In this document: piece by piece, positions 1 to 50,462 of the stretch
Position numbering within the stretch: the stretch's first letter is position 1
Layout: each line of letters starts with the position of its first letter
Source of the DNA: Pocillopora damicornis
Taxonomy: Eukaryota
DNA: 64,000 nucleotides
Reading direction: 5' to 3'
Assembly: GCF_003704095.1 (NCBI RefSeq)
Contig: NW_020845317.1
Span: forward strand, 124,001-188,000
Notes under the pieces: generated by a model
Database searches by the model: none
Told to the model about the DNA's origin: nothing
Seen by the model: the letters and a program-made list of their open reading frames with translations, nothing else
Made by a program: the position numbers and the translations under genes

Positions 1-3000
1 CCAAAAGACTGAATCATTGAGGAGTCGCAGAACTTTTGAATGAGTGTCGCGAACCAAAACCAACATGGCCACGACTATCAATCAAATGAGGAAGAAAATA
101 TCTCGGGCAGTTAGTGAGAACCCAAAGTATAAAACAAGCTCTCGCGCTTTTAACTCAAAAACAGTTGGCAGGTATAAAAGACTTATCACACAGTTTTGCC
201 AATTGCACATTGTAAAAACAAGCAATTGGCTGTTTTCCTTTTGGCGAACGACAAGCACCCACCGCTGCTCTCCTTCCCGCATCGAAGTCGATGTAAGTTT
301 AAAAAAAAATTGACTTAAGTAGAGGCACTAAACGAATCACTCGTGGTAGACTTTTTAACGAATGAACTTGCTGAGGCTACTTGTTTTTACGATCTTCTCT
401 TAAGGAAAACGCACCACAACCACAAAGAACACATTTTTCAATGCTCGTTTCTCGAAGAAGAAAATTTCAACAATTTACCGAGAGCGTGTCTCGAGTACGC
501 GCGACGGACTCAATAAAACATTCTGTAACGTTTACCGACAAATGTTTGGCTGCTGAAAAGGAACTTTTCACGCTTGCAGTTCCAAGGAACCCAACAGATC
601 TGTTACAACTGTACAACGCTACTGTTCTGCAATATAAAGTGGTATGCAACTCACGCTCGCCATAAGAAAACACCCAATTTATAGTAACAATAAATTTGCA
701 TGCATCGCCATACCATTTCTCTCACAAAAGTAGATAATGAAGTTAGACAAACTTATGAATGAAACTGAATTACGAACGTATTTTGATTGGTTCTTACCCA
801 AAATTTATTGGAAGACAGACGTCTAGATAACGCCACCTTAAGTGCCACTCTCGCTAAGAGCGGGCCTCTCGCCTTTCCGTCGGAAAAAAGTTTTCTCTTA
901 TTTTTTGCCCAAAGGGTTCAGGACACATGTTTCAAAAATAGTTTAGTTGTTCTCCAATTCTCTTTTTTGCGTCGCCACAAGCCAAAAATGATTTTTGGCC
1001 AGACCACCTCTGTGAACAGCGATCGAAAGTGTCAATTTCAAAGATTTTGTCTAGCGCGCAGCGACTGCATCAATGTAGCTCACGGAATTCTATCTTGCTA
1101 CAAGTTACAAGGTGTATTTAGTTAGTTCACAGACAAAATATGGAAACTTAAGCTGAAATATTTTTCATACCAGCGTGATCAGAGGAGACCCTTCTCTTCG
1201 ACCTTAATTTGCATATCAAAAATTCACTACTTTGTACGAAAGAATTCTCAAAATGCAGGCGTTAATCGGCCTGAAAAAGCATATCAGTGCATAGTTTATA
1301 CACCAATGAGGTCACTGATTGCCTCAAAACCCGCGGGTATATCTCTAGCTTCCATATACCAACTTCTTAAAAACAACGCAAATCCATGTGTTTGCTCAAT
1401 TGCGCTGGTGTCAAAGATCATTTGCATGATTCTTGGAATCGACCAAGATCTCCTTTTGACAGTTCAAACTTCGTTCGTTTATCTTCTACGTTGAGGATTT
1501 TAGGTTTTCACAGCAACTGAATGGAGATTAGATGCCGAGTTGTCCTAAGACGTTGCGTAAACGTGATCGGTCGTAACGCTTGCGCGCTTGCGTGACTTAC
1601 AAAGTAGACAAAGGTGATCGGAAGGCGCCTTCTCGATAATTTACGTTGAAATATCAGGTCATGAACTATGCACTGTGTGGAGAAGATCAAAATTAAAGAA
1701 TAAAATTTGGCACTCTGGTCATAACAGACATATCACGTTGCTTAAAAGGACACAAAAACAAGTTAAAATAGGTTGCATTGTTTATATTTACAAAACAACA
1801 CGCATACACTCCGAAACAATTCTTGCAGTTTCTCCCGAGATTTAGTATACGGAACCCGATGAACTAACCCTCTTTCTGCAAATTTGATTCCGTCATTAAT
1901 GATGTGACGCTCTTATGTACCACAACGGTTTTGAGCGACAAACTCGACATTTCCCTGCGANNNNNNNNNNNNNNNNNNNNNNNNNNNNNNNNNNNNNNNN
2001 NNNNNNNNNNNNNNNNNNNNNNNNNNNNNNNNNNNNNNNNNNNNNNNNNNNNNNNNNNNNGCCGTGTCTCTGATGTGTTTCTATCCTCGACGAAATCTTC
2101 TTTAAAACTGATTTATAATATATTTTCTTAGGCTTTAATATTTAATCTTTATTTGAGGGGGTCGGATTTTTTTGTTTACAATATGAAGGAAATAAAATAT
2201 TGATGACAGCTATCAAAGTTACTGTCCACATTTGACTGAAAATGTGTCAAGTTCACATTTAAGCTAGAGAATTTTAGTTGTGTCATGACGAAATATGCCT
2301 CATCCTCCTTAAGGCTCTATAATACTATTATGACCACCCTTCCCCTCCTCATCGGAAGTTAATTGGCAGTCAACTTACCCCTGGAAAACCGTGTGATCCC
2401 CTCAAAAAATTCCCCTCCCTCGGGGGATAATTAAAGGTTCCCTCGTTATTTTTTCCACCCTAAAAGTATTTACATTTGAGATAACTGAGTTACATATCAT
2501 GTGTTTTTTCGAAAGGGGCAAGGGGATTCCACACGTAGCACCAAAGTAAATGACATAATATTTGTGCTAAAACTTTATTAAAATCACAAACGAAGCGAGG
2601 TACTTATTTTTCATGTTTTGCTGCTGTCCTCCTGAACAAGCATGTCTACAAACTAAAGAATACCCGTTTAATAACGAATTAAACCAAAACTGTATCAGTA
2701 TCACTATTATTAGCTTATAGCAATATTTATGAATATTACCACTTCATGTACTACCTCTGCTAATATGATACTGCTAATAATATGACAACGTACGTTTGTT
2801 CAAACGGGAATATCACGTGTATATCTGATTATTCTATAGAGTGTGGATTTGTGTAAATCGGAACGATGCCTTCATTAAGGAAACATCTAATGCTATAATT
2901 AATGCGAGTATTATATGTCAATAGGAGCAAATAATACCCCAAAAACGTTAATAGAGTTAATCATTAAAAACCATGTTTCGCCTGAACATATCTGCTCTCG

Positions 3001-3202
3001 CTATTCTATTAAATATTTTAAAGGAAAGAGGATGCGTTGCCTTGTATGCTAAATGCAATGATATTTCTTGATGTGTTCTTTATTCTCCATTATTCCTGTC
3101 TGTCTTTTCGTCTTTTGAAGTGGCTTCCTCTGCTTCAGCAAGTGGTGTGTGATGGACAGAGTACCGAGTCCTGAAAACAGGAGCAATTTTTCAAAGGGAG
3201 AG

Positions 3203-3253
3203 TTAGTGTTATCAACTGAGTTGAAAACGTAAATTGGCCACTGTAAAGAGTTT
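3203..3253. mobile_element. Family C left arm running into an assembly gap
   Basis: ttatcaactgagttgaaaacgtaaattggccactgtaaagagttt. Confidence 0.6.
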
Positions 3254-3353
3254 NNNNNNNNNNNNNNNNNNNNNNNNNNNNNNNNNNNNNNNNNNNNNNN
3301 NNNNNNNNNNNNNNNNNNNNNNNNNNNNNNNNNNNNNNNNNNNNNNNNNNNNN
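3254..3353. other. Assembly gap (100 N) probably hiding the last AIDA exons; other gaps at 1961-2060, 9248-9625, 49682-50060, 59226-59325 and 61463-61562
   Basis: Runs of N. Confidence 0.95.
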
Positions 3354-3425
3354 GACAATGTTTTTTTTGACAAAGAGCCCAACAGACACATGGAATTCTA
3401 AAATAAAAAATACAACAACTCTAAC

Positions 3426-3548
3426 CTCTTGGAAGTTTCTCTATAGGCTTTTGAATTTCTACATCAGTATCAAAGTTGATAAACTTTCCATTAACTCTGT
3501 TTGAAGTGGTTGTATCTTGAGCTGGGGTTACATTCACACCATTGGCAT
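3426..3548 (-). CDS. AIDA: AIDA exon 8 (C2 domain)
   Basis: ctacag|DANGVNVTPAQDTTTSNRVNGKFINFDTDVEIQKPIEKLPR|gttaga; 123 nt. Confidence 0.93.
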
Positions 3549-6500
3549 CTGTAGAGAGAAAACACTCAATAGTTCAATATAAATTTTGCTGCAGTTATTT
3601 GTTAGCTCTTTACACCCTAAATATCAGTATGCATATTCTCCATACTGTTCTCCTTACATTTCCTAAGGTGCTGGTAAGGAGAATGTACCTAACAATCAAG
3701 AACTTCTTTTGTTGGTGATCATTTACTTTATTCTTGTGACCCTATGTGTGTTTTAGGGATGAAATTGAGAGGAGAAATTACATGCTCATGGTGACTCTTA
3801 GGGGTTAAAGGAATTAGTTAACATCCCCTCCACCTTGGCATTATAATAATCATTGATCGTTACCTTTCACAGAAACAGTAAAAAATGGATTAATGTACAC
3901 ATGGGCATCCTTCAGTCCAATCTGGTTGATTCGTACAACAAGTCGATGATATCCTTCTTCGAATGGGATACGCGGCAACAAAGACCCTCCTTCAGCTTAA
4001 AAAACAAGAAAAAAGATGAACATCATTATATGACAGAGCAAAAATACAACAAAAATGAACAAATGTATGACATATGTAAGATTAATATCTGAAAAAGGGT
4101 TGTGGTTGTTTAACATGCTAAATACATGACCAGATTATTTCAACTGAGTACTGTTACTGATAGTTCTCTTCTGTAAGTTTCTAGAACTCTTTCATAAATG
4201 GTGTGCTACACTGCTGTTTTTATTGCATTTCTGTAAACTAGCCTTTTCAATCAGTTGGTATAAGCATGTTTTAAAAACAATTGCAATATCAGGAATTTTC
4301 ATTCAATCAAAAGCACATTAATTTTCAAGGGTATAGAAGAGTATTAATCATGCCCAACTCTAATTTTGAGGTAACTATCGCCCTATCTGAAAATGGGATC
4401 CTGGGCAGTATAAGTAATCTGTGTCACACACTGAACTGTATGATTACTGATAGAAAAGACACCAGACATAATGATGTTCTATGACAGAGTACACTGGTGT
4501 ACTCAAGTAATAACTTGAATGCCTATAAGATCTTAAAGTGTGTTCATGCATTAAAAAAGGAAAGAACTCACCAACTGAAGAAACATGCTCAGTTCCATTT
4601 TCATCTCCATATTCTGTTACATCAGTATCACTAACAAAAACAGAAAAAAAAGTTGTAGGCTTTCCATCCTTCAGACAGCAGTAATGTTTGAGAGACAATT
4701 TACATCAGAAACCAAAAGATGACCCTGAATGAAGAAAGAACCAAGGAAAGGTTCAACTTGCCAATGATCTGGACAGGACCCATCAGGTCACATGTCACTG
4801 AAGACCTGATCAATTTGGTGATCTTTATTTTAGAAGAGGCAAAAGTTTAATTGGCCATTTTACAGTAATGCATTTAGTTGCCAAGCCTTTGATTTGGAGT
4901 GAGGCTGAAAGTGACCTTGTTGTGATAGAGACCAGTATCTAATTAGCATGATAACAAAGTAATTTACAAAGCAGCAATGTTTGTATCATAACAAGGTCAC
5001 CCTTAGCCTCACTCCTGTTCAAAGGCTTGGCAACCAAGCATGCAACTGCAAAATGGACTATAAAAAATTTCCTTCCTGTATGTGTGGTGCCAAAAATTTG
5101 ATGAGCTAACCAAGATCATCTATTCAATCAGCTTGAAATTTTTAATTTTATTTCTTGCTGGCCCCACCAGTTATAAAAATAACAACCTAAAACTTACTAA
5201 TTGATCTAAATTATGACTAACCTTGTTTTAGGCTCTTCGATCCTGACTGGAAAAGGACCATTCCAACCTACATTTAAGTTTCTCAACACTGTGCAAAAAG
5301 AGTTGATAATGGTAATCTGCAGTTAAAACTGTTGTAAAATAAGAAATATTTTCAAAAGACAAACCAGTTAATAGAAATATTGTGATGAAGCTGGCTTCAT
5401 AGGAATATCATTGGGACAATTTTTGTTGCGCTGAAAGTTGAGAGGTTGTTATGAGAATATTGGAGGGCACTTAATCATTACACCACTGTCTCCCTCAAAG
5501 AGGTTGTATCAATTGTTTCTAAATATGAATTTGTCTGGAGTTATCAGGTACTGGCCATTACAAGCCATTTTACAGTTTTTTATGTTAGTTGCTGAGCCTT
5601 TGATCTAAAGTGAGGCTGAAGGTGACCTTGTTGTGATAGAGACCAGTATCTAGTTAGCAACTGATAACAAAGTAATTTACATTAATTTAAAAAGCAGCAA
5701 TGTATGTGTCAATTAACAAGGTCACCCTTAGCCTCACTCCTGTTTGAAGGCTAATGGCAACCTAGCACTCAACTGTAAAATGGATTATTGAAACATATAC
5801 TGTACAGTTATGCAAGGAGCAATGACAGCATAGTAACAAACAATGCACACTCACCTTCACCAACTTTCTTGATATCATCAAATGAGATCTCATCATCTCT
5901 AGCCTTATTGTGAATCAAAAATAAAAAGTAATAATGGACAATTGAGAAGATGAACTTTAAACATTTCAAGACTACATTAATTATTGATTAAAATTAACCA
6001 GTTGATTTACTTTCAAATTTTAGTGTATATGATTTATAATAATCATGCATTGTCATTAAATTTTCAACTCCGGTTATTGAATTTCTAATGCTCTGATTGG
6101 CTCATTTAACTCCAGTAAAATGGAACTCATATACCCAATCACCTTACATAGAAACTAATACACACAAGTATTTCTTAATCTGAGCATTAAAACAAATTCA
6201 TTAAGCTCCCATAGCTAGTGTTCATAATAAGACGATTATTCTATTCATGCTTGTTGGACACAAGATTTGCTATTCATCATTTAATATCCAACAGTGCATA
6301 TGAAATAATTGTTAAGTACTAAGCTTATTAAAGTAAATGTGTTTCGAAGATATGGTGCCAAGGTTATACTAAATTGATGCACTATTGATGAGCAATCTCC
6401 TTCCTAAATAATAGAAACTGAGGGTGTCTGATAAAACTGATACACAAAATTGCACACTCTCTTCTCAATAACCATTTACAGTACATACCAGAACTCATGG

Positions 6501-9060
6501 TCTAAATGAATTTCACCAAAATTTTTCCTCATGCAAGAAAAAACCTCGTAATATTATCAAACCAAACATGGTCACAGTCAGATTCACCTGAGTGGATAGT
6601 AATATTTTGCTTCTCTTCTCAAAACAGGCTGACATTTTAAGCATCAGTTTCTATAGAACAAACATTACATTTAATTTATTATCAATAAAATTAAAGTACA
6701 AATTTGTGTGCCATAATCATGTAAATAGCTATGTCTATCTTTAATTCTTGAGCAGTAAATGGACCAAATGGACCAAATCTACTTGGCCCTCAATCTGCAA
6801 ATGTTATTTTTCTGCAATGGTCAAACCCTTTCAAGTGTTTACATTCATTTGAAATCACTGAAGTGTGTCTAATAAAGGGGGTACGTTTCTAAAGAAACTG
6901 CTGTATCAGTGTGAGAATGTTCAGGGTAATTTGGTGTAATATTAACCGAGTTGATAATGTAAATCAGCCAACGTAAAGAATTTTAAAAAGCTGACATTTT
7001 GAGCGTTGGATGAAGGGCTCTGCTGAAGGGCTAATGCTTGAAATGTCAGCTTTTAAACTCTTTACTGTAGCCAATTTACATTTTTATCACCTCAGTTAAT
7101 AGAACCAAATTAGACTGAATGCTCTTACACCAATGTAGCCCTACATTTTCTTTAGAAACCTACCCCTTTTACTTGTGTGTCTAACGAATAGATAGCCAAA
7201 AGAATCTCTCTGCTTAATGAATGTATGAACTACATTAAATATTACTTAGTGGCATACGCAACTCAGTGTTTTGGCAACATGGCAAGTCAGGGGTGTGTCT
7301 GTTTCAAGATTGATGTGGTCAATTAATAGATTTTGCTTTAAACATTGATTTATACACAATAATGAAAGTTTTAACTCTGTCTCCACAAACCTTCTGTTCC
7401 TCTTGAAACATCTTGTTTCCCAAAGCACAATGTTTTTTCAAGTCTCTAGCGAGTCTAGACAAAACAACTTTCTTTATTAATCAGTGGTCATCTACAAGAA
7501 TTTCATTAAGGAAGGTTAAAGATAGAGAAAAGCAAAAAGAATCAGATTCGAAAATTCTAAATAAGCTCATTAGTAAATATTGTGGGCAGCTTATCAAGAA
7601 AAATTTTAATCCTTCAACTCTCAGAGTTGATTGACAAGTAACTTCTTCCAGTGTTTTTCTTTTCAGGTGGTAACCAACAAAATTTACTGCCTGTAGTATC
7701 TCCTATTACCGTTTAAAATTGCTTGGAATTCTTGAAAATTCAACAGGTAAAAGGATTCCTTTAATGGTTTGAAAATTTATTTTATCTGTCATGCTTAAAA
7801 TAAGGGAGAACACTGTTCTCCCTGTAATAAATTCCATATATTACTCAGCAAACAGGTAATGACAATACTCAAACTTATCAGCTAGATGTTAATTCTTGAT
7901 CTAATATTAAAATCTTGTAACTAACTTACAAGGAAATCTGTAGCAGTTAGAGGGGAGAATTAATAATCAGATCTTGGGAATTAAAGGGTTAATTTAATAA
8001 ATGTCCACCAAATTATCATTTTTATCAAAAATTAATAGATAGGTATATCATATATATACAGATTTAACAGTACATAGTCAGTGGCTAGTCATTTTAAATT
8101 CTCCCCAAGTGTAAAAAACAAAAAAAATTAAAATTGTGAAAATTAAATATTGGGTGACATAGATTTGTATATGACTTAGGCAGGCCTGAGGCCATGCAAA
8201 AAAATTAATTAAAAATGACAAAAGAGAATGTTTACAAAGTATTTCAAGAGAAAGACAATGGACATTTATTTATAACAAAAATTCACCTGCTAGAGCAGTA
8301 AAATATGATTAAACTGGGGCAGAGCTTATTGCTTAAAATGAAACACTTACGTTTAATATACATATTATATATCCAAATTTGAACATTCTAAACATTTATC
8401 AGCCTGAACATATCAAAAAAACGATTATTTCTACACAGACTCGCGCTGTTGCTACCGTATTTTTTTCGACAAGTTTATGTTAAACCATTCCTAGATAGCT
8501 GTTACCAATCTTCACAAGCTTATCATAATAAACAGTCTAGGTTTTTTTTTAGTCGTGAAAAATATACACACAGTAAACTATGATCATCTTCTCTTGGGAA
8601 ATTTCTTGGGTAGTTTCAACCATTTATACCGAAAATGGTTAAAAAAAGACTAAACCAGAATCTTAGCTAAAAAAATTAAATATGTTTTCTGGAAAAATTA
8701 AGCCACTTTCAAATTCTGAGGGCTTAAATTTATTCCGCAAACAAGAATCGAAACAGTACCGTTTCATGCAACACTAAATGACCTTAAAAATTCTACCTAT
8801 TCAGGCCAAAATCCACTAACGAAGCTAGCCATAAGTAGCTTAGATAGGCGTCGTTGCTTCCTATGAGATTGCAGTGAATTACGGAGCAAAATGTGTGTAC
8901 TGCATATGAAAGAGGAAAGCAAATAAAACAGACATATCGTTCTTATGTGGTACCTTGAATACTCCTCGGCGGCTTCCACCAGCTGGCCCCAAGAATCAAA
9001 ATCTTTTCCTTTCTCAAAAGAGACATACCACTGGTTTATTGTTCTGGACTTTTCAGTCAT
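3426..9060 (-). CDS. AIDA: Axin interactor, dorsalization-associated protein (AIDA), multi-exon, 3'-partial (221 codons reconstructed)
   Basis: Exons 8954-9060, 7391-7454, 6588-6650, 5855-5903, 5222-5288, 4572-4630, 3864-3995 and 3426-3548. All are GT-AG and phase-compatible. Translation MTEKSRTINQWYVSFEKGKDFDSWGQLVEAAEEYSRLARDLKK...SLLPRIPF...IGLKDAHVYINPFFTVSVKDANGVNVTPAQDT...EIQKPIEKLPR matches the recalled AIDA N-terminal (DFDSWGQLVEA) and C2 domains. The last C2 exons were not found; the N-gap at 3254-3353 follows. Confidence 0.95.
3602..3816 (+). mobile_element. ~210-bp MITE (family A, TTAA/CCC-type ends, piggyBac-like)
   Basis: Degenerate ttaacccttta...taaagggttaa ends; internal sequence recurs at 9626-10077, 14000-14112 and 15400-15539. 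Confidence 0.7.
3864..3995 (-). CDS. AIDA: AIDA exon 7 (start of C2 domain)
   Basis: tttaag|AEGGSLLPRIPFEEGYHRLVVRINQIGLKDAHVYINPFFTVSVK|gtaacg; 132 nt. Confidence 0.93.
4345..4418 (-). pseudogene. Degenerate duplicate of AIDA exon 7 within intron 6
   Basis: Encodes ILPRIPF, then after a frameshift GDSYLKIRVG, against LLPRIPFEEGYHRLVVRIN in the real exon 7. Confidence 0.55.
4572..4630 (-). CDS. AIDA: AIDA exon 6 (acidic linker)
   Basis: tgttag|SDTDVTEYGDENGTEHVSSV|gtgagt; 59 nt. Confidence 0.85.
4852..5060. mobile_element. Palindromic ~210-bp MITE (family D), AIDA intron 5
   Basis: Long inverted arms ccattttacagt...ccaagcctttga...gagtgaggct...gtgaccttgtt / aacaaggtcac...agcctcactc...caaaggcttgg...actgcaaaatgg. 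Confidence 0.8.
5222..5288 (-). CDS. AIDA: AIDA exon 5
   Basis: gcacag|VLRNLNVGWNGPFPVRIEEPKT|gttagt; 67 nt. Confidence 0.88.
5563..5787. mobile_element. Second copy of family D palindromic MITE, AIDA intron 4
   Basis: Colinear with 4852-5060. Confidence 0.8.
5855..5903 (-). CDS. AIDA: AIDA exon 4
   Basis: aataag|ARDDEISFDDIKKVGE+G|gtgagt; 49 nt. Confidence 0.88.
6588..6650 (-). CDS. AIDA: AIDA exon 3
   Basis: ctatag|KLMLKMSACFEKRSKILLSTQ|gtgaat; 63 nt. Confidence 0.9.
6874..7170. mobile_element. Palindromic Penelope-like repeat (family C) with central degenerate hammerhead motif
   Basis: Arms aaaggggg..tttctaaagaaa / tttctttagaaac..cccctttt; centre gct-ctgctga-agggctaatgctt-gaaa-tgtc-agc (7017-7050). 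Confidence 0.7.
7391..7454 (-). CDS. AIDA: AIDA exon 2
   Basis: tgtctag|A-LARDLKKHCALGNKMFQEEQK|gtttgt; 64 nt, phase 2 to 0. Confidence 0.9.
7815..7992. mobile_element. MITE family B (ends ...agatcttgggaattaaagggttaa)
   Basis: Same terminal ~100 bp at 18745-18842; degenerate copy at 50280-50462. Confidence 0.65.
8954..9060 (-). CDS. AIDA: AIDA exon 1
   Basis: ATG at 9060; MTEKSRTINQWYVSFEKGKDFDSWGQLVEAAEEYS+AG|gtacca. Confidence 0.93.
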
Positions 9061-9115
9061 ACTTTCGTCTAGGTAGTTTGCAGATCCATTTTTTTGCAGG
9101 TGATTTTCAGATATT

Positions 9116-9180
9116 GGCCATCTTAAAGCGCAAGAGACTGTCAGCAAATGTACATGATTCGTTACATGACGTAACTTCCG
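9116..9180. promoter_or_regulatory. Likely bidirectional promoter between AIDA and the helical-repeat gene
   Basis: CpG-richer patch upstream of the AIDA ATG. Minus strand has an overlapping ETS/CRE-like CGGAAGTTACGTCAT (9166-9180) and a YY1-like AAGATGGCC (9116-9124). Confidence 0.5.
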
Positions 9181-9625
9181 AACACTTTTGTACCGCGGGC
9201 GCTATTAGTTAGCCTGTCTCACGAAACACGCACGCGGACGAAATAATNNNNNNNNNNNNNNNNNNNNNNNNNNNNNNNNNNNNNNNNNNNNNNNNNNNNN
9301 NNNNNNNNNNNNNNNNNNNNNNNNNNNNNNNNNNNNNNNNNNNNNNNNNNNNNNNNNNNNNNNNNNNNNNNNNNNNNNNNNNNNNNNNNNNNNNNNNNNN
9401 NNNNNNNNNNNNNNNNNNNNNNNNNNNNNNNNNNNNNNNNNNNNNNNNNNNNNNNNNNNNNNNNNNNNNNNNNNNNNNNNNNNNNNNNNNNNNNNNNNNN
9501 NNNNNNNNNNNNNNNNNNNNNNNNNNNNNNNNNNNNNNNNNNNNNNNNNNNNNNNNNNNNNNNNNNNNNNNNNNNNNNNNNNNNNNNNNNNNNNNNNNNN
9601 NNNNNNNNNNNNNNNNNNNNNNNNN

Positions 9626-10077
9626 AAAGGTCAAGAGAGTCAAGGAAATGATCACAAATTTAAGAAACTCCTGATTGTCAAACAGATTTTCATTAAATTT
9701 TCCCTACCATAGGAAATGTAAAGAGAACAGTGACTGACTTCTAATTTGACCACTTACACTATCTTCCTTGAAGCAAATTTAAAAGTCACAAGAATAAAGA
9801 AAATGATCACCAATTTAAAGAGCTCCCAATCATCAAACACATTCTGTCTGTACCATAGGAAATGTAAAGAGAACAGTGTGAAGAGAACAGTGTGACTGGC
9901 TTCTAATCTCTCCTTACATTATCTTCCTAGAAGCAGATGTAAAGGTTGTGAGAATAAAGGAAATGATAACCTAGTGAAGAAGCTCCTGATTGTCAAACAA
10001 ATTCTCTTTGTCAGTACCATAAGAAATGTGAAGAGAACAGTTTGGAGAATATGAATACTTATGTTAGGGTGAAAAGG
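9626..10077 (-). mobile_element. Three tandem partial copies of family A MITE in the 5' intron of the OPR-like gene
   Basis: Unit aaatgat(c/a)acc...accat(a/t)ggaaatgt(a/g)aagagaacag repeated three times. Confidence 0.7.
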
Positions 10078-10219
10078 AGCCATAGGTCGAGGTTCTTGAT
10101 AATAAACTAGTGTAACCATGTCTGATAGCATAATTTTTTTCTTTTCATTCTCTTAGGTTCTTCTGTTGTGGTTAATGAGCTGCTCTCCATAATCAAGTTG
10201 AGACAAAAAAGGTCATATT

Positions 10220-11923
10220 ATGAACCAATTTAATTCAATGGGTTTTATGAGAAAATTTCTTGTGCAAGTTAGACTTGTAGGACTTTTCAAGAATTGCTGT
10301 TCATCATTGCCTTTTATACAAGCCAGGGGTTTAACAAAAAGTGTTCTTGCATCACCTGTTAAACCACAACAAAACTGGATCAGGTGTAAAAGGATAAGCC
10401 TTGGCTTACCATCAGTCCTATGCACTTTCAAGTCTGTTTCTGTGAAGACCCTGGCTAAGGATATTTCAGCCGTCAAGTCTGCCAGTGAATATCTTTACTT
10501 GTATGACAGATTTAAGGACTCACCTGCCATGACTCAAATGAATCGCATAACAATTCTGCATCATTTGGCCAAGGTGGCTGCCAGTGGACCAAAGAAAAAC
10601 TTCTTCTCTACAAGAAAAGTTCTAAATGATGAAATGGAAATTTTTATCACCTTGTTGAACAATATTGGAAATGATCTTGAGACATGCAAGACTCGTGATC
10701 TTGCGACTATTGTATGGTCATTAGGAAAACTAAGGGAGCATGATGCATGGTTTGTTACAGAATGCGAGAATGAAATACTTCGGCGAGATCAGACCTCATT
10801 TCGGACACCAGCAGTGTGTAAGATTCTTATTGGTTTTGCTTCACTTGACTTGAAAAGATCCAAGTTCTTCGGAATTGTTGAACAAAGAATTCTGGATGGG
10901 CAGCTTAAGATGGCGAAATTTGAAAATCGTGGACTGGCTGGTGTTCTGTGGTCTTTTACCAAAACTGGAAACGAGAGTAAAGAACTATTAGAAAAGTTCC
11001 AAGAAGAGATTTTGTTGAGAGGTGTGAGAGAATTTAGCAATGACCAGCTTGCTCAGTTTTTATGGTCATTCACCCAGAAAGGAATTGTACCATGTGATAA
11101 ACTGTTTTCAATTACAGAAGAGGAAATTTTGCAAAGACCAGTTAGAGATCTCAGTGCTCATTGCCTCAAGATGCTGTTATGGTCCTTTGCAAGAGCTGGA
11201 TTTGAAGGGAGAGAAGGGCATGATCTTTTTGCTAGTTTAAGTCCTGAAATAATACGGAGAGGTGTTCATGATTTTGATGCAGATGATCTCTCTATGTTAG
11301 CATGGGCATTTGCCAAAAGGTGCCCAGATGCCCTAGAGATCTTTGATGTCATAGAAGAAGAACTCTACTTAAGAGGTTTTGCAGAGTTTGGAAACCAAGA
11401 ATTGTCGTGTCTTTTATGGTCATTTGCAATGTCCGGTCATACAAGTACTGAGCTTTTTCTTAACAGCCAAAAGGTATTGATTTCAAGGGATTTAAGTATG
11501 CTAAAAGCTGAGCAGTTTACTCAGTTAGTTTGGGCATTTGGAAAATCAACACTTTTAAGATCAGAATTTTTAACAAAGGCAGTGAGTGACATGTTATCAC
11601 ATGCTACTGTTTACTCTGATGAGGAACTGTGTATGATATTAAATGGATGTGTTCAGGTATCAGTAGATATCCAAGAGCCTCTTAAGCAGTTGAAAAGAGA
11701 AGTTTTGGATAGAAACATGCCTCAAAATAAACCTGAGCTCATTCCTCAATTGGCCTCAGGTTTCTCTACATGTAGCTATGAAGCAGCATCAGTATTTGAT
11801 GCAATAGAGAAATCACTGCTCACTAATGGCCTTTCTATGTATACAGAGCAAGAACTGCAAGGTTTAAGTATAGCTTTTTCTATAATGGATAGAGAATTTC
11901 CCAAAGTAAAGCAAAAACTATAG
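10220..11923 (+). CDS. Octotricopeptide-repeat (OPR/HPR/FASTK-like) helical-repeat protein, predicted mitochondrial RNA-binding, 567 aa, single coding exon
   Basis: Uninterrupted ORF. Motif Fxxxx[L]xxxLW[SA]F[AT]xxG recurs with W at aa 166, 244, 282, 321, 362, 400 and 438 (degenerate unit at ~204); spacings are 38-41 aa. The first 80 aa have no D/E and are K/R/S-rich (presequence-like). Upstream acceptor ttctcttag at 10156; AATAAA at 12031. Confidence 0.85.
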   Translation: MNQFNSMGFMRKFLVQVRLVGLFKNCCSSLPFIQARGLTKSVLASPVKPQQNWIRCKRISLGLPSVLCTFKSVSVKTLAKDISAVKSASEYLYLYDRFKDSPAMTQMNRITILHHLAKVAASGPKKNFFSTRKVLNDEMEIFITLLNNIGNDLETCKTRDLATIVWSLGKLREHDAWFVTECENEILRRDQTSFRTPAVCKILIGFASLDLKRSKFFGIVEQRILDGQLKMAKFENRGLAGVLWSFTKTGNESKELLEKFQEEILLRGVREFSNDQLAQFLWSFTQKGIVPCDKLFSITEEEILQRPVRDLSAHCLKMLLWSFARAGFEGREGHDLFASLSPEIIRRGVHDFDADDLSMLAWAFAKRCPDALEIFDVIEEELYLRGFAEFGNQELSCLLWSFAMSGHTSTELFLNSQKVLISRDLSMLKAEQFTQLVWAFGKSTLLRSEFLTKAVSDMLSHATVYSDEELCMILNGCVQVSVDIQEPLKQLKREVLDRNMPQNKPELIPQLASGFSTCSYEAASVFDAIEKSLLTNGLSMYTEQELQGLSIAFSIMDREFPKVKQKL

Positions 11924-11960
11924 GAAGGGGGGGAAAGTTGATATAAAAAAATATATAAAA

Positions 11961-11999
11961 CAGCATTATCCATTAAAAAACAGCATTATCCATTAAAAA
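11961..11999 (+). repeat. 20-bp tandem duplication in 3' UTR
   Basis: cagcattatccattaaaaa x2; duplicates an ATTAAA. Confidence 0.9.
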
Positions 12000-12023
12000 G
12001 ATTAGTCTTGCATTGTTGTATTT

Positions 12024-12036
12024 TTTATTGAATAAA
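12024..12036. terminator. Back-to-back poly(A) signals (TTTATT-G-AATAAA) for the convergent OPR-like and GALM genes
   Basis: AATAAA on + at 12031-12036 and on - at 12024-12029, between the two stop codons. Confidence 0.5.
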
Positions 12037-12237
12037 AATTTTTTGTTTAACAGAACATTGTAGATGAGTATTTAATACGTCTGCATCTGAATTGTGTTTT
12101 TGCTACCCACAATAACTCTTTAGACACACTATGGACTTAGCACTTGTAAATACCTCAGTTTATCTAAGTATATTACCCTGATTTGGAAAAAAGCACTTGT
12201 GATTTTAAATTTTGACTTCCATTCTGCGCTACCACAA

Positions 12238-12383
12238 TAATAGGCCAATCAATTTCAAGCTTCAACACCCCCCCTTACCCTGGCAACCCATGGGTATTTG
12301 ACCCTCACCTGTGCCTGAAGGGTTGGGAATTTGACCTTGCCTGGAAGGAGGAGGGGTTTGGCTTCAAATTGACTGACCCTTAA
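12238..12383. mobile_element. Short TIR element in the GALM 3' region
   Basis: Imperfect TIRs taggccaatcaatttcaagc / gcttcaaattgactgaccctta. Confidence 0.5.
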
Positions 12384-12568
12384 TACATTGATGAATAACC
12401 AAGGACCTCTTGAAGAGAAAGAACACATTTATGAACTTCACCTCTTAGAGTTAAGGTCCATTCTAATTTGAACCTATCCCTTAGCTTCCTAAAGCTTTGG
12501 CCGATGAATTATTTCAATACCCTACTCTGGATATTACTAATGAATTGTTAATCTAATTATGACAGGGC

Positions 12569-12655
12569 TCATTGCTTGTCTTTGACATCAAATTTGTAGA
12601 TGGTTTTCTGTTTGTAAGTTTCCCCTGGCCGAAGAACTGGACTTGGGAAGTTAGT
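12569..12655 (-). CDS. GALM: GALM exon 8 (terminal)
   Basis: [28 protein letters not shown]. Confidence 0.95.
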   Translation of the reverse strand, partial: TNFPSPVLRPGETYKQKTIYKFDVKDKQ

Positions 12656-15600
12656 CTGTTGACCAAAAAATAAACATTCAAGCAAATGAAAACACATAAA
12701 TTGTTATATTACTGAAATAATACAACTGAAATATCCCTCCATTGCAGAAACACTTTTCATGGGGACTTTGTAGGCTTGAGGTTTGATGTTGGTTACAAAT
12801 TACTATTGGATACAAACAAACACAAAACTAACTTGGTTAACAGCGTCAGGGTAATTCTGCGCCTCTAGGCAGAAGGCACCAAACTTATGGTAAAGAACAC
12901 CTCCCTTGCCAGAGAATCCATCAAATCCATTGGCAGTGTAAAATTGAACTCCAGGCTGATCGGTGAACATTTTAAGAACACGCCCACTGCTTGGATGATA
13001 CACTCTGCAAGATCATTACCATGGACTTGATTATTGGTATACTCCATGGTAAATTTAAAAGGTTTATTAAAATTTGTATTGCTGTCTTTGTTATTCACTA
13101 TGTTCAGTTTCTGGTGATGTTTAACTCTCTCTTTGGAGGGAGCTCTCAAGCTGGTGAATTGCGGTGTTGCAGTCTTTGTAAAAAGGACTCCATAGCCATG
13201 CACAATCAGTGCTAACCTCAATTTACCCACAGTTCATGCTCTTTGTAGGGCTTTGTAATGTGCTCAGTTGTGTAACTAATTGGACATATCAATCATGTGT
13301 GGGTGTCCATGATATTGCAGTGTCTGAATGTGTTTAATTGTCAATTTCTCATGTACTGATGTTGTGTTTTGCGATATTTTTTTGCAATGTTGTGGATCTC
13401 AGAACTCCCCAAAGTTCCTATCAGCTTTCTGAGGCTTCAAATTGACAGAAGCTCTGTCTAAATACGATAATTTAAATTAACTTATTTGTAGATAAATTAA
13501 ATCTAATCTCCTTACTCAGCGCAGCATTCTTTTTTTCCTTTTAAACAATAGTTGTGATCATAGCCATCTATTTTATGAATGTCCTTTCCAATAGGTTTGG
13601 GCTTGGTGAAGTCAAAGGCATCATTTGGGCTTGACACAGAGCATTCCTCACCTAGAATATATAATAATCACTGTTAGTTAAAGAGCACAGATGTAACAGA
13701 AGGAAAAAGATATACAAATTGAAAGATAACAGGCCTCTGCACTACAGCCTAAGAAGGGCCATATCTTTACATGGAACTACACCATACATGTACACAAACT
13801 GAAAATTTTAGACTGTGTGTACCTGTGGGAATCTGCACATCATTTAGGGGCAGATAGTGCTTAGCATGGATCTGAGCTATGTGATCCAAAACATCATGGT
13901 TAACCTGACAAAGAACTTCAGACAATCAATAAAACAAGAATAATTTTACAATATCAAACAAATTTAACAAATTTGTGACTTAAGTATCATTTAAAAATGT
14001 TTGGTTGAGAAAATCTTGATTTTTCAACAAATTCTCCTTGTCAACACCATAGAAAATGTATACAGAACAGTGAGGAGAAAAAGCATACTAATGTTGGGGT
14101 ATGAAGAGTTAAAAAGCTTGTACCTGACCAGCTAAGTTAAAGTAGCCATGGCTGGTGAGATTGATGATGGTGGGAGCCTTGGTTGTCGCTTTGTAGTTGA
14201 GTTTGACTTCATTGTGATCAGTAAGTGTGAATGTGAGTCTTACTGTTACATCTCCAGGAAAATTTTCATCCCCATCTGGACTTTGGTGAACAAACTTCAC
14301 TTTGTTTTCTCCCTTTACTTCACTTTTCCAATTATACTGATGAAAACGAAAACAAAGACAACAATGACAGTCAGAGCAATTTTTAACTCACACAAACTAA
14401 AAGACTCTTGGGAGAAATACAGTTCTTTATCTATAAGCATCATCATATTTAGCACAAAGCAGACCTTGTTGAATCCAACCCATCCTCCATGTAGAGTATT
14501 TGGAGGATTATTGACGGCTAAATTGTATTCTTTGTTATCAAGGGTGAACTTTGCATTTGCAATCCTGTTTGCAACTCTTCCAACTGTAGCTCCGAGGTAA
14601 TGAGGGTTACTCAGATAGTCTGAATAAAAAAGGAAATATGAATGATCGCAATTAAAGTTTCACAAACAAAATGTCCATTGCCATGCACAATCAGCAACAC
14701 AATTGTTGACCACATTATGGCCCAAATGCAATTAATTCTAGAAAAGTACACCTAAGAAGTTCAATTTAAACTCCATGAATAACTATTGCCAAAGTTGCCA
14801 TAGGAAGCCAGTAGCTGATGGAAACCCCCCCCCCTCCCCCCCTCACCCCCTGCTATCAGAACATTTTATGCTAGGTTACTTTGTGAATTGTGATCAAAAT
14901 TAGGAAATAATATTTTTTATTCTAACATCAAATATATATGGCTTAAAGAGTTACTCAAAAGTGTCCCAGAGTGCTACATAACATGTCTCAGAGAGTTTCA
15001 AATTTCAAATTTTTCCAGGGGAACAAGCCCACATACCCACTAGAAGGGTGAGTTACACAGCCACATGCTATGCTTGCTTTTACTTACACGCATAATTCAA
15101 TTCAGCCACCTCCTCAGTTCAGCTCATGCATCTTTTACATTCTCTTGTGACAACCCTGTAAATTCTTACATAGACTTCTCAGTGATGGAGATTACAAAGA
15201 TTAGATATTACAAGCACTTACCCTCCAACTTATCATAGCCCATAATGACATCATCCATTTTTCCATTCCTGATTGAGTTAAAAAAAAAAAAAAAAAATTG
15301 TGAGCTAGGGGTTTAAAACCATATTTCTTTATAAATAAGTGCCTAGGCCCTTATCTAAAAATTTAGCTTAATTCGAAAGAGGGCTAGCAATTAATCATTA
15401 ATGTCACGAGAATTGAGGAAACAATCACAAACTCAAGAGGCTTTTGATTGTAAAACAAGTCTCCATGTCAGCACCTTAGGAAATGTTTATGGAACAGTAC
15501 GAAGAATATAAATACTGCTGTTTGGGTGTAAGGAGTTAAGCTAATTAGTTGATAATTACCTCCACTTTACTGAATAATAATTATATATAAAAGTAATGGT

Positions 15601-19252: not shown

Positions 19253-20959
19253 TCAAGCAACAGAGGCCAAATGTTTCATGCAAATCTTGATCCTCAACAA
19301 CTTTGATCGTTGTTGTTCTTCATACCGTTCCTTTTTTGACTGGCTGTTCAGTCCAGTCCATTCCTTACTTTCGTCGGATGGAAAAGCGCGTGTCAAGAAC
19401 TGACCTATGGCGCTCTTGATAACCAACTCCGGCGTTTGACTCATCATACGAACGGGTTTGCGGCCGGGAAGTTCGTCCTCATTTTTGGCTGCGACTTTTG
19501 AGTACATCAAGAGGAATTCTCGAAACATGTTCACTTGAGCTAAGGTTTTGGCTTCGTCTCTCTTACGCACAATTTCGGGACATGACATCGCGGAGACTTT
19601 GCGCAAGATTTTTCGACTGGTTAAGTTTGGAACGTAACCCTTTGCGGTAGCTGGTCGAATGACTCTTGTCTCGTCCGTTTGCAAATCGACCTTGCGCCTT
19701 CTCAAAATTGGAGAGCTCAAGGTTCTCTGCGTCATTTGTGATACTGAACTTGTGCATGATCTTGCGGACGAAATACGCCTTGCAGATATTATTCCTTGCT
19801 CTTGGCGTGAGATTTTTCGAGAGCGTGTTCGATTTTGTCTTGAAGTTATTGGACCTTGGCATCTATCTACGCCCGAGGCAAACGTTGCTGCGTTCATTAC
19901 TCTCTCTTGATTTACGGAAACTTTACGAGGAGTCGCCGATTTCACACTTCGGATTTCGCTGTTGTCCCCGACCTCTGCAACACTTACGCTTTCAGGTACT
20001 TGTTCTTCTTCGTATTTGTCAGCTTTCTCTTCAAGCGACTCGCCTATTTTGGGTTCAACATTAACCATTTCGTATCCTGATTCAGACTTGACAAATCTAA
20101 CACTACTTTTTCTTCTTTTAATGATATTTTGTAGTGACTCTTTTAACTGTGGATCAGTAAATTGATTCAATACTTCCTTTTCATCGCACGAAATCTCTTC
20201 GGGAAGCATTTTTCGCTCGCCCACTCCACTATTTTCTGGATCTGAGCAAGTACTTAAAAATATCTCTTCATTGCAATTGGACATTTCGAATTCTATATTT
20301 GATCTACGCTCGCTGTCACTTTGTTCTCTTGAGCTTAAGTTTTCTGATACGTAAGCTTTCGACTGAGAATTCTTTCTGATAATCATGTCAGAATTATCCT
20401 TACAACTGTTATCAATTGAAATAAGCGGAGTGGAAGTGGTCGTGTATCGGCTATAAACACTCGGCTTATTTTTTTGTGGGCGATTCAGCGTTGTGTGTTT
20501 TTTAGTGTTTAATGGAGTCTCTCGCGGTTCCTCCCTACAGTACTTTTTGTCTCTGTCAATTCTCTTGCTTCCTACTCCAGATACAACACTCGACATTTTA
20601 CCCGCAGAACATCCAAGCCTTCCTGCATCTGGTTTCTTTGACGTTAATTGACTATTCCTGTCACCAGTCTTGTGGCCTTCGATTTTCAACTGGCTTTGCA
20701 AACTTTTGCGCATAAAATTCATTTCATGAATTACTCCACGAGGGTCCTTTTTCGCTCCTGATGAAAAGACGTTATGTGTGTTTCCAACCTGGTTTAATGC
20801 CTCCAAAATGGCTGCTTTCTTCGCGGTGTTTGCAATCATCTTTTCACGGGCTAAGTTTAATCTGCCCACAACATTTCCCAATGTAATATTTTCATCCTGC
20901 AATTTACACTTTGAAGTGTTGGCAGGCCTTGGCTTCGTTTCCTTACCGTGTGATGTCAT
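19253..20959 (-). CDS. Uncharacterised basic, largely disordered protein (568 aa) with CCDC190-like N-terminal helix
   Basis: 1.7-kb ATG-initiated ORF, K/R/S/E-rich, many R[RK]xS sites. Helix at aa 27-58 aligns with those of ORFs 23585 and 59881. Confidence 0.85.
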   Translation of the reverse strand: MTSHGKETKPRPANTSKCKLQDENITLGNVVGRLNLAREKMIANTAKKAAILEALNQVGNTHNVFSSGAKKDPRGVIHEMNFMRKSLQSQLKIEGHKTGDRNSQLTSKKPDAGRLGCSAGKMSSVVSGVGSKRIDRDKKYCREEPRETPLNTKKHTTLNRPQKNKPSVYSRYTTTSTPLISIDNSCKDNSDMIIRKNSQSKAYVSENLSSREQSDSERRSNIEFEMSNCNEEIFLSTCSDPENSGVGERKMLPEEISCDEKEVLNQFTDPQLKESLQNIIKRRKSSVRFVKSESGYEMVNVEPKIGESLEEKADKYEEEQVPESVSVAEVGDNSEIRSVKSATPRKVSVNQERVMNAATFASGVDRCQGPITSRQNRTRSRKISRQEQGIISARRISSARSCTSSVSQMTQRTLSSPILRRRKVDLQTDETRVIRPATAKGYVPNLTSRKILRKVSAMSCPEIVRKRDEAKTLAQVNMFREFLLMYSKVAAKNEDELPGRKPVRMMSQTPELVIKSAIGQFLTRAFPSDESKEWTGLNSQSKKERYEEQQRSKLLRIKICMKHLASVA

Positions 20960-23584: not shown

Positions 23585-24817
23585 ATGTCATTTGACTTGC
23601 CGCAGTTTCAGCAAACTTTTGGGGAACAAGTGCGTGAAATACGAGAGCCCAGTGAATGGATGGATCTTAAAAGCCGAGTTGAAGAGGAGAAATTCCGAAA
23701 ATTAAGCGCCGACTTGGAAAGAAGACGAGTTCGAAGGTCTGTCTATTATGCCGAGGAAGAGAAAAGAGTTCTCAGGGAACTTGACAACTTACAGAGAGAC
23801 CAATATCGATTTGAGCGCGAAAAACAACTCCGACTGAGGAATTCAATCTCGTCCTTGTACGAAAAAGGGCATCCGGCGAACGGATCGCCAACAGAAGTTA
23901 ATACTCAACTACCAATGGACCGAAAAGCATTTGGTGGGTCGGCGTCTCTTGCATTTGATCCTGCCGTTGAGAAGAAATCGCTTTCTGCTAGAAAAGCAAG
24001 TAAAGAACATACTGTGAGTTACAGCGCGACGGGAAAGGTATCAAAAAATTACTCATCGTTCAACAGGTTTCCTTTTATCGAGGAAGGAGATGTACAGCAA
24101 TTTCACAAGTGCTGCAAGTCTGCTGCGAAGATCGAGTGTCGGCGATGGGGAGAGGCTTGGTTTTATGCTAAAAATGAGCAAGAGGTATTTGTGGATAGCA
24201 GAAAACGGTGGACTGCTGTTTTACTGAAATCCGAAAGAGAAAGAATGGAAATTTTAAGTAAAAAAGGTGCGGCATTGATGGATTCTGGAACAGGCGTAAA
24301 AACCCACTGTGTCGGTGATGAAACAAAAATTTATGGAGATACTGGGACGGAAAGCGACACTAAAAAAAGACAAGGAAGTCTACCTCCTAGTTTTGAAGCG
24401 AGGAAAGAACAAAGTTATGACAAGAATAGAAGCGTAGAAATCAAGGGAAACAAAACATTAAACTTTTATGAAGCTTTTAGTCTTCCACAAGCACACGCGT
24501 TCAACACTGGAGAGAGTTCCGTTGACGAGACAACGCGAAACACAGACAAGTCGATCTCTGAGGATTGTCAAGAAGTTAACATCAATTCGCTGCAACTGAT
24601 TGCAGGGGAAAAAGTGGTAAAATGGGCGAAGAAAAGTCGAAGTGTTTCTTCTGAGGAGAATAGGAAAAAATTAAAGGAAACCTCAGTGATTCCGATGCCT
24701 GCTATTCACGAACTTGTTACAGAGGGAAAAAATTCAATTTCAGGAGAAAGTTCTAAAACCCTTCCCCGACGTAAACGAACCTTCTGTTTTTTGCCAAAGG
24801 TAACGAGGGAAACATGA
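23585..24817 (+). CDS. Uncharacterised disordered protein (410 aa) with CCDC190-like N-terminal coiled coil
   Basis: aaaaATG start; acceptor-like ttcgcgtag at 23570; helix KFRKLSADLERRR...EEKRVLRELDNLQ. Confidence 0.85.
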   Translation: MSFDLPQFQQTFGEQVREIREPSEWMDLKSRVEEEKFRKLSADLERRRVRRSVYYAEEEKRVLRELDNLQRDQYRFEREKQLRLRNSISSLYEKGHPANGSPTEVNTQLPMDRKAFGGSASLAFDPAVEKKSLSARKASKEHTVSYSATGKVSKNYSSFNRFPFIEEGDVQQFHKCCKSAAKIECRRWGEAWFYAKNEQEVFVDSRKRWTAVLLKSERERMEILSKKGAALMDSGTGVKTHCVGDETKIYGDTGTESDTKKRQGSLPPSFEARKEQSYDKNRSVEIKGNKTLNFYEAFSLPQAHAFNTGESSVDETTRNTDKSISEDCQEVNINSLQLIAGEKVVKWAKKSRSVSSEENRKKLKETSVIPMPAIHELVTEGKNSISGESSKTLPRRKRTFCFLPKVTRET

Positions 24818-28604: not shown

Positions 28605-29270
28605 TTAATTGATGTAAGAAGCGTAGACTCGCTCTGCGTTTACCTTATCTTCGTCACTATCATAACATTCGCTTTGGCTACATGAAGTTCTGGATGCAAA
28701 TTCTTGATCATTTTTAAAGTCATCTTCGTTTTCTAATGGAGTTGGATTTGTCGGTCTTTCCAAAGCGTCCTCAGTCGCCGAAAAAATCAACTCGTTACAT
28801 TCCCCCGTGCTTCTCGAGCGGATGCGCGGGTTCGTTTCCGTGCTACTGCTACGACTCGGAGCTACACGTCCGTACGACGCGCGTGGCCTCTCGCGATCTC
28901 GAGGCCGAGCGATTTTTGGCGTGCTGTATATGTCTGGAACTTTTGGCTTGCCGCCGAGTGATGCAGGTTCCTCGAGCGCACGACATTCCTTTCCTTTCAA
29001 AAGCGTCGGCCTGCTCAGAACAATGTCGTCCCCCGGCCTGTGTTTTCGCTGGCTCCTGTGTGGGTCAAATTGATCCAAAGAATCCAGCATTTTGCCATTC
29101 AGTGGAGGGAGTCTTTTCAGCTTGTCACTGTTAATATTCAGAACCGGATTTGCTGGAGTTTTAAGCAGTCTTTCTTGCTCAATAATCAGCCTTAACACTG
29201 CAGTTGATTCTTCGTCATTAAATTTGCTCCGCGGTGGAATTCTACGATAGTTATCAGTTGTATTTTCCAT
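28605..29270 (-). CDS. Uncharacterised disordered protein (221 aa), probable paralog of ORF 39772
   Basis: aaggATGG start; probable 5'UTR intron (donor after 29897, acceptor before 29331); shares three motifs with 39772. Confidence 0.8.
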   Translation of the reverse strand: MENTTDNYRRIPPRSKFNDEESTAVLRLIIEQERLLKTPANPVLNINSDKLKRLPPLNGKMLDSLDQFDPHRSQRKHRPGDDIVLSRPTLLKGKECRALEEPASLGGKPKVPDIYSTPKIARPRDRERPRASYGRVAPSRSSSTETNPRIRSRSTGECNELIFSATEDALERPTNPTPLENEDDFKNDQEFASRTSCSQSECYDSDEDKVNAERVYASYIN

Positions 29271-39771: not shown

Positions 39772-40302
39772 ATGGAGAGCGCAAAGATTCCCATGCGAGG
39801 TAAAGTTAAAGATGCCGAAGCTGAGGCATTGCTAAAATTGCTTCGACGAGAAAAGGAGTTTAATGATCGGTTCTCGGCGCCGCAAATTCATCAGAGGACT
39901 CCTTTACCCGCAATAGGAGGCAGTGGTAACAACACCGAGACACAACAAATTACAAGTTGCGACAGAACAGATGGAGCATTCCTGACACAAACATTTGAGA
40001 ATGAAACTGGCTTCTCCAATTCCGACATTGGGCATAGCAAGGAGTTGGTTAATGACTCAAAATATTTATGGTCATCAAAACCAGACGTGAACAGTAATTC
40101 TCAACCTCCTTCGTCTTCAAAAGAGTTCTACATTCCCCCGTTCACGTGGAAAGGAGAGCAAAGTTCGTGCTACTCCAAACACGAACGACAAAGACATGGA
40201 CGAACTTTGCCACCCCATGAAATACCCGTTAGTCCCTATTCTTACCTTCCCGAACGTCCCTCGTGTCCTAGACCAGAATCACCGAAGTTCTGTGAGGATT
40301 AA
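39772..40302 (+). CDS. Uncharacterised disordered protein (176 aa), probable paralog of ORF 28605
   Basis: gtcATGG start (first ATG of the tracked ORF); IPxRxKxxDxExxAxLxL, LPAI and ERPxxPxP motifs. Confidence 0.78.
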   Translation: MESAKIPMRGKVKDAEAEALLKLLRREKEFNDRFSAPQIHQRTPLPAIGGSGNNTETQQITSCDRTDGAFLTQTFENETGFSNSDIGHSKELVNDSKYLWSSKPDVNSNSQPPSSSKEFYIPPFTWKGEQSSCYSKHERQRHGRTLPPHEIPVSPYSYLPERPSCPRPESPKFCED

Positions 40303-50279: not shown

Positions 50280-50462
50280 GTGCAGTATGTATGAATCATA
50301 CATGAAGCAGGTGACGAGAAAATAAATACTTATCAGGAAAGGGGTGCACTGTTACCTCAGTGTCATACAAATTCTCTCCACTGATTTGCAAGGAATCGAA
50401 GTGTATAGCAATTATCAGAGAGAGTTACGAATTTGATCTCGGGATCCGAAGAAAAGGGTCAA
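50280..50462. mobile_element. Degenerate MITE family B copy abutting the stop codon of ORF 50459
   Basis: caaattctc...gcaagga...gagagtt...gatctcggga...aaagggtcaa resembles 7815-7992. Confidence 0.45.

Follow-up and report, generated by a model that had tools for sequence, protein, structure and literature searches.

Introduction

The question raised by a gene in the genome of the stony coral Pocillopora damicornis is how an organelle-type repeat protein of the OPR/HPR family, without the RAP domain, comes to be encoded in an animal and what it may do there. The gene lies in a window of 64,000 nucleotides (assembly GCF_003704095.1, contig NW_020845317.1, positions 124,001 to 188,000, forward strand), the whole stretch of DNA analysed here, in which its coding sequence occupies positions 10220-11923 (+) as one open frame of 567 amino acids. 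A preliminary description had proposed a candidate mitochondrial RNA processing or splicing factor, either a retroposed FASTK derivative or a horizontal acquisition. RAP-less proteins form the majority of the OPR/HPR family in protists and algae, RAP being carried by about 25% of the apicomplexan members (PMC8190603) and by 163 of 1067 OPR/HPR proteins (PMC13126933; these and the papers below are cited from excerpts). How cnidarians, lacking tRNA punctuation, cut their mitochondrial RNAs and keep them stable is an unsolved problem (PMC7194472, PMC5474008), and the excerpts from work on octocoral processing and on ND5-717 back-splicing name no protein factor (PMC5474008, PMC6545197). A literature search, covering main texts mostly outside subscription papers, returned no paper on RAP-less OPR proteins in animals or on the coral and anemone family described below. 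The gene is genuine and conserved among corals, and its product is an OPR/HPR protein, which is not a canonical FASTK and belongs to a RAP-less family of corals and sea anemones.

The locus and its transcript

The 567-residue gene is transcribed and spliced, and introns are absent from its coding sequence only. A splice joint from 9247 to 10157 is present in RNA contigs of two runs of one study (X2 and X3), with 28 letters on the short side. The visible part of the non-coding exon 1 thus spans 9220..9247 (+); the RNA contigs extend 74-77 letters beyond 10157, which places about 49 further bases of the exon inside an N gap (9248-9625). The rest of exon 1 and the 5'-UTR intron together occupy 9248..10156 (+), the donor being hidden in the gap and the intron closing with a polypyrimidine tract and an AG acceptor that ends at 10156. 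Exon 2 (10157 to at least 12348, +) holds a short 5' UTR, the entire coding sequence and the 3' UTR; gapless contigs cover 10157-12348 (X1) and 10157-12500 (X2, X3), starting exactly behind the acceptor, crossing the stop codon in poly(A) RNA without splicing and continuing towards the 3' UTR of the neighbouring gene. One contig of unrecorded read type (X15, 10024-12500) runs unspliced across the acceptor. This evidence comes from 8 of 18 runs, with 7 of the 18 on record as RNA, and from contigs, in which rare isoforms can be dropped. The gene had first been described as intronless, which is true of its coding sequence and wrong for the gene as a whole.

Both neighbours are animal genes, as had been noted, and they flank the gene in other corals too. 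Upstream and head-to-head lies AIDA, whose first exon (8954..9153, -, with the ATG at 9060) is identified by Pfam Aida_N at 39.4 bits and by CT..AC joints in RNA. Since exon 1 starts near 9220, the two genes begin about 70-100 bases apart on opposite strands, and they probably share a promoter around 9150-9220. Downstream and tail-to-tail lies the multi-exon gene for GALM, an aldose 1-epimerase (12541..15300, -), with Pfam Aldose_epim on all three exons tested and RNA joints.

The gene is under purifying selection, with a dN/dS of about 0.2-0.3: three pairs at middle distance give 0.23-0.31 for the protein body, one pair of nearly identical sequences gives 0.54, and the range across three pairs that are saturated is 0.09-0.24.

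Several further features of the window may be recorded. The 5' UTR contains an upstream open frame of five codons (10175-10192, +), ending 27 bases before the main ATG, and the 5'-UTR intron contains a repeat element (9626-10077) that, by contig joints and depth, has many further copies, among them 14015-14043 and 15460-15503. Clustered in the window are also seven long K-, R- and S-rich open frames with no Pfam match over cut-off (19253-20959, 23585-24817, 28605-29270, 39772-40302, 50459-51058, 55598-56167 and 59881-61194).

A leader, a cap and eleven repeats

The first 80 residues contain 13 K/R and no D/E, the first acidic residue being residue 81, in agreement with the acid-free basic N-terminus reported earlier. 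Residues 1-71 (10220..10432, +) are predicted, from composition and from their disorder in the AlphaFold model, to be a mitochondrial targeting presequence. A cleavage-like R-x-F/L-T motif lies near residue 37-40; of the 32 aligned orthologues, 24 have the pattern R[CGYF][FLY][TS] among their first 90 residues, and at most one acidic residue is found in the first 40 of 23 of 33 family members, versus 32 of 110 other hits. A helical cap follows in the model (residues 72-155, 10433..10684, +). Its profile scores at least 10 bits in 4 of 109 other proteins and in none of 109 reversed controls, and most of its top matches sit before the first repeat of non-coral OPR/HPR proteins.

The remainder of the protein, residues 156-560 (10685..11899, +), consists of 11 helix-turn-helix repeats of OPR/HPR type, delimited by the model and by repeat spacing, where at least eight had been counted before. 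Their cores lie at residues 166, 204, 244, 282, 321, 362, 400, 438, 475, 513 and 551, at spacings of 38, 40, 38, 39, 41, 38, 38, 37, 38 and 38 (range 37-41 residues); seven carry the core [LIVA]W[SA][FL], which covers the LWSF and AWAF cores first recognised, and the other four are degenerate and were placed by hand. A spacing of 38 also accounts for 53 of 75 intervals among 33 family members. No PPR Pfam family matches the protein, and its repeat period is 38 residues, not 35. Tandem 37-40-residue repeats, a helix-turn-helix solenoid and an LWALA-type core in helix A are all present, and these, together with the composition of the leader, support the original assignment to the OPR/HPR family with a presequence-like leader. 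The PPPEW-like motif, the mark of OPR proteins sensu stricto, occurs in none of 33 family members, so the protein is placed in the wider OPR/HPR family only. PPPEW is also missing from HPR proteins and from CCS2, the consensus of which is LWALAR (PMC8635915).

The absence of RAP, already suspected, is borne out at several levels. The AlphaFold model, built with 32 aligned orthologues, is all-helical (mean pLDDT 80.6, with residues 1-71 under 50), and having no strand elements it has no alpha/beta RAP fold. In the 567-residue protein neither RAP nor FAST_2 gives a Pfam match, and the repeats reach the C-terminus. An unseen exon bearing RAP, the possibility by which the assignment might have failed, was also rejected, given the unspliced contigs across the stop codon and the lack of any match to a RAP C-terminal profile in the window. 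What the protein does show of a canonical FASTK is FAST_1, at 29.5 bits versus a cut-off of 27.4, a score summed over the repeats with no single stretch significant.

A family of stony corals and sea anemones

The gene does not stand alone. At least five paralogous loci, the query included, are present in the genome, the identical set being returned by four protein queries, and each is a single open frame of 434-573 codons with a basic N-terminus and no RAP. Named relatives come from Oculina, Orbicella, Acropora, Desmophyllum, Actinia and Nematostella, that is, from stony corals and sea anemones; all named members are hexacorals, and the remaining members were placed by similarity. In UniRef an Acropora orthologue and a Nematostella paralogue are labelled 'RESC6 domain-containing', other members carry RESC6-domain or FAST-domain labels, and PF26188 (RESC6) is the newer precomputed annotation of the orthologues. 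The RAP C-terminal profile matches 0 of 79 family members versus 52 of 91 other hits longer than 600 residues, and finds nothing within about 10 kb of the paralogues; Pfam RAP is found in 0 of 31 members, in 0 of 3 unassigned proteins and in 7 of 8 hand-picked controls. A further signature of the lineage, E-I-L-x-R at the end of helix B, is present in at least two copies in 30 of 33 members versus 27 of 110 others.

Six related loci on metagenome contigs are 51-53% identical to the query, each with one open frame. AIDA lies upstream in two of the six (L019, L021) and GALM downstream in two (L019, L024). The remaining three are all short; two or more of them are spliced transcripts with the same 5'-UTR intron, which is common to the orthologue loci when L020 is compared with L019 and L023 with L024. 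In a tree of 31 family rows only, midpoint-rooted and made by a quick method, the query falls in a six-row clade (100% SH-aLRT) with Oculina, Orbicella and Acropora clusters; two of its paralogues join a larger diverging clade, and two join Actinia and Nematostella proteins at weaker support. Judged by sequence, the query is a one-to-one orthologue across stony corals, inside a family common to sea anemones; no close orthologue of it was found among the named anemone hits. A recent or lone retrocopy, one form of the retroposition proposed at the outset, does not agree with at least five paralogues, a conserved 5'-UTR intron and conserved synteny, and the distribution of the family across stony corals and anemones with its synteny kept likewise tells against a recent horizontal transfer.

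Within the family some members are of interest in their own right. In P0040, residues ~266-801 form four to five near-identical three-repeat units of 116 residues, which differ mainly at a few helix A positions and look like the product of recent amplification within the gene. The divergent paralogues P0043, P0091 and P0098 share a longest-contig figure (566372), as do P0051 and P0054 (587793), which suggests that divergent paralogues are clustered in tandem in other corals, like the algal NCL genes. A subfamily of long proteins (P0058, P0069, P0080 and P0336; 784-835 residues, with repeats to the end), which includes a Nematostella protein, has no close match in the Pocillopora damicornis genome. 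Three RAP-less repeat proteins (P0120, P0163, P0167) have coral-like E-I-x-x-R ends of helix B at only about 26% identity and could extend the range of the family.

Relatives by sequence and fold

A profile search returned 3357 representatives at E ≤0.001, and among the best 150, which were examined, the best matches beyond the coral-type set are 20-30% identical. In the PDB, a sequence search finds only RESC6 of trypanosomes (E 1.5e-4; 1e-18 with the family profile), which also leads by fold, with a VIA Z of 25.0 (rmsd 7.7, 440 residues aligned), followed by chains of the Toxoplasma (23.8) and Chlamydomonas (23.4) mitoribosomes; non-mitochondrial solenoids reach at most 12.3. The top 10 rows of Foldseek are RESC or mitoribosome chains throughout. 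The FAST1 module of FASTKD4 aligns closely over a shorter stretch (Z 12.0, rmsd 2.6 over 159 residues; profile E 0.13). Comparison with OPR, HPR and FASTK folds, which the preliminary description had called for, therefore puts RESC6 first and mitoribosomal repeat proteins next. Among the latter the family profile matches mL115 (3e-9), mL123 (8e-8) and mL113 (6e-4), and it also matches ASA3 of the Polytomella ATP synthase (8e-8), with ASA2 as well, and NDUTT15 of Tetrahymena complex I (3e-7).

With OPR/HPR proteins such as TDA1, MDA1, CCS2 and mRSiC the coral protein shares 37-41-residue helix-turn-helix repeats, an LW(A/S)F core, a similar N-terminal cap and an organellar leader (predicted in the coral protein), and many such proteins of green algae, apicomplexans and dinoflagellates are likewise RAP-less; it differs in its animal host, in lacking PPPEW, in having mostly replaced the Q/N at W-7/W-3 and in its E-I-L-x-R signature. 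RESC6 (PF26188), with RESC8 and RESC4, is the best match by sequence and fold and an all-helical, RAP-less mitochondrial solenoid, but identity is 14-17%, and RESC6 works in a guide-RNA editing complex, of which there is no sign in corals. FASTK and FASTKD1-5 of animals share a mitochondrial leader (predicted in the coral protein), an HPR tract and the FAST_1 match; their repeats are degenerate, whereas the coral protein has 11 regular ones and, having neither FAST_2 nor RAP, has no nuclease fold. Chlamydomonas mL113 and mL115, Polytomella mL123, the Toxoplasma chains, ASA2, ASA3 and NDUTT15 share the repeat fold and the profile match, but at 11-14% identity.

Origin of the family

The simpler account of the family's origin, and probably the correct one, is that the RAP/FAST_2 end was lost from an ancestor of OPR-RAP or FASTK type. 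It is simpler because OPR/HPR proteins are described as ancestral in eukaryotes, human FASTK repeats are degenerate and FASTK N-terminal domains align to RESC6. That the family was instead acquired horizontally by the hexacoral ancestor, from an alga or some other protist, is a separate issue from function and seems unlikely, although a number of observations would suit it. In Atlas features, protist clusters score 0.91-0.94 versus 0.79-0.80 for chordate and arthropod FASTK/FAST_1 clusters (the latter from a filtered comparison on part of the protein), the five coding sequences are single open frames, and no RAP, FAST_2 or MTES_1575 match passes its cut-off in the genome. Against transfer, no donor group stands out, with non-coral matches at 20-30% identity at best among those listed; bilaterian FASTK repeats are degenerate, and the family is thought ancestral in eukaryotes (PMC6212722); Trichoplax has three FASTKs, and sponges have proteins with FAST_1 and RAP (PMC5737537); and FASTK N-terminal domains also resemble RESC6 (PMC12687428).

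The genome searches themselves suggest that canonical FASTK is missing from this genome, as far as profile matches can tell with an insensitive FAST_1 search and domains that exons can split. RAP gave two weak matches (20.1 and 18.5 bits), both under the cut-off of 24.2 and set aside as noise: no frame resembling FAST or RAP lies within about 10-20 kb of the better one (L007), and the second is interrupted by a stop. The FAST_1 search missed even the five known loci, FAST_2 gave neither candidates nor a hit to any positive control, and MTES_1575 gave nothing over cut-off, in a search where the PPR_long control found two loci.

The mitochondrial genome and a possible function

The mitogenome within the assembly has 17,415 bases, with all genes on one strand: trnM, trnW, two unfragmented rRNAs, 13 respiratory genes (atp8 called by position only, with no Pfam match) and an orphan open frame. 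Rfam and standard ARAGORN agree on trnM and trnW as the only tRNAs; further candidates from the relaxed mode of ARAGORN (Asn, Tyr, Gly, Pro and a second Trp) overlap genes or repeats, have no Rfam support and were discarded. With only two tRNAs, 15 of the 19 gene junctions have none, and four touch one. The two parts of nad5 lie apart, from about 2713 to 13598, with about 10.9 kb and 12 other genes in between, and cox1 is whole. The scarcity of tRNAs and the nad5 intron noted at the outset for hexacorals are thus found in this assembly, and the cox1 intron is not. The orphan frame, of 302 residues (G000:C4393 7548-8456, L038), lies between atp6 and nad4, has no Pfam match and is followed by a repeat-rich spacer of 464 bases; we take it to be the known orphan ORF of pocilloporid corals.

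We tentatively propose, by analogy, that the coral protein acts in mitochondria as a non-catalytic RNA-binding factor, protecting or defining the ends of transcripts. The leader would direct import and then be removed, and the protein is confidently predicted to fold into an alpha-solenoid. Helix A would bind about 10 nt of single-stranded RNA, with a ladder of lysines at W+4 holding the backbone, as in PPR/OPR proteins and RESC6, and at tRNA-less junctions the bound protein would block exonuclease trimming or recruit a separate nuclease. Because there is no nuclease domain, the simplest mode of action would be that of algal maturation factors, which sit close to the end of an RNA and keep exonucleases off it. 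OPR proteins protect the ends of RNAs against exonucleases (PMC8635915), mRSiC, an HPR protein, makes small mitochondrial RNAs more stable (10.64898/2026.01.22.701003), and RESC6 holds RNA on its concave face and aligns with FASTK N-terminal domains (PMC12687428).

The repeat surface points in two directions. In favour of RNA binding, W+4 is K/R in 66% of cells in the orthologue repeats, and K in most repeats of the query, and the non-core positions of helix A are conserved like the core (0.81 and 0.83, versus 0.65 for exposed helix B, in 10 non-redundant orthologues). Against it, W-3 is N in 68% of 1034 cores of other OPR/HPR hits versus 6% of 157 coral and anemone cores, and W-7 is Q in 71% of 1030 versus 10% of 157, these 'groove' positions being assigned by analogy and not from model coordinates. 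The loss of the canonical Q/N may mean weaker base reading, and it leaves room for ribosomal or scaffold roles. The mature protein is, moreover, net acidic (pI 5.6; 59 K/R versus 68 D/E), and the profile matches to ASA3, ASA2 and NDUTT15 also count against RNA binding. A search for a motif common to the regions upstream of 14 mitochondrial genes is a further point against the proposal: the best 7-8-mers occurred in 3 of the 14, no more than in random windows.

A rather unlikely alternative is that the protein helps to build or assemble the coral mitoribosome, as a structural subunit or an assembly factor of the kind known in Chlamydomonas, Polytomella and Toxoplasma. Mitoribosome chains rank second and third by VIA, mL115, mL123 and mL113 match the family profile, the locus is single-copy, syntenic and conserved in the manner of a housekeeping gene, and the loss of Q/N would fit shape-based rRNA binding. 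HPR expansion, however, accompanies fragmented rRNA (10.64898/2026.01.22.701003), whereas the coral rRNAs are whole, and a core ribosomal protein would not be expected to want a close orthologue among the named anemone hits.

Less probable still is a scaffolding role without RNA binding, for instance as an accessory part of complex I or ATP synthase. ASA2, ASA3 and NDUTT15 match by fold as well as by profile, and the net acidic charge would suit such a role, as would hydrophobic residues at W-3, where M or L stands in four repeats of the 567-residue protein (orthologue consensus). But RNA-associated chains score higher, the lysine ladder at W+4 is kept, and the recent three-repeat duplications of P0040, like several paralogue groups that diverge fast, are more in keeping with modular RNA readers.

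It is also improbable that the query protein helps to splice the obligatory ND5-717 group I intron, which at about 10.9 kb encloses most mitochondrial genes, although nad5 is split here and every named family member is a hexacoral. Hexacorals cannot do without this intron, whose last base is A rather than G (PMC6545197), and in algae two FAST_1/RAP proteins, Raa1 and Raa3, take part in trans-splicing (PMC5737537). This is co-occurrence only, within hexacorals; the intron is pan-hexacoral, yet the query orthogroup has no named anemone member, and the group of L005 with Actinia and Nematostella proteins would fit better. For contamination from a symbiont, a pseudogene or an artefact of assembly one could cite that the best matches beyond corals and anemones are protist-type proteins, including one from Symbiodinium; these readings are practically ruled out by the AIDA/GALM synteny in other corals, the spliced poly(A) transcript, purifying selection, a GC content resembling that of the flanks and relatives in Nematostella and Desmophyllum, neither of which is known to host algal symbionts.

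Implications

A bolder synthesis, which we consider unlikely, would be that hexacorals lost the RAP-nuclease FASTKs, the cutters of tRNA-less junctions in humans, and that their nearly tRNA-free, intron-wrapped transcriptome is run by an expanding, nuclease-free, sequence-reading OPR family with a rewritten code, possibly protist-derived, at least one member of which drives ND5-717 splicing. Should RAP-bearing FASTKs prove to be absent, corals would need a nuclease other than the human FASTKD5 route. With 11 regular repeats and orthologues at about 50% identity, the gene would also be useful for working out an OPR recognition code. For the processing of cnidarian mitochondrial RNA, one coral provides five candidates from this family, and Nematostella, in which knockdown is routine, provides two named paralogues.
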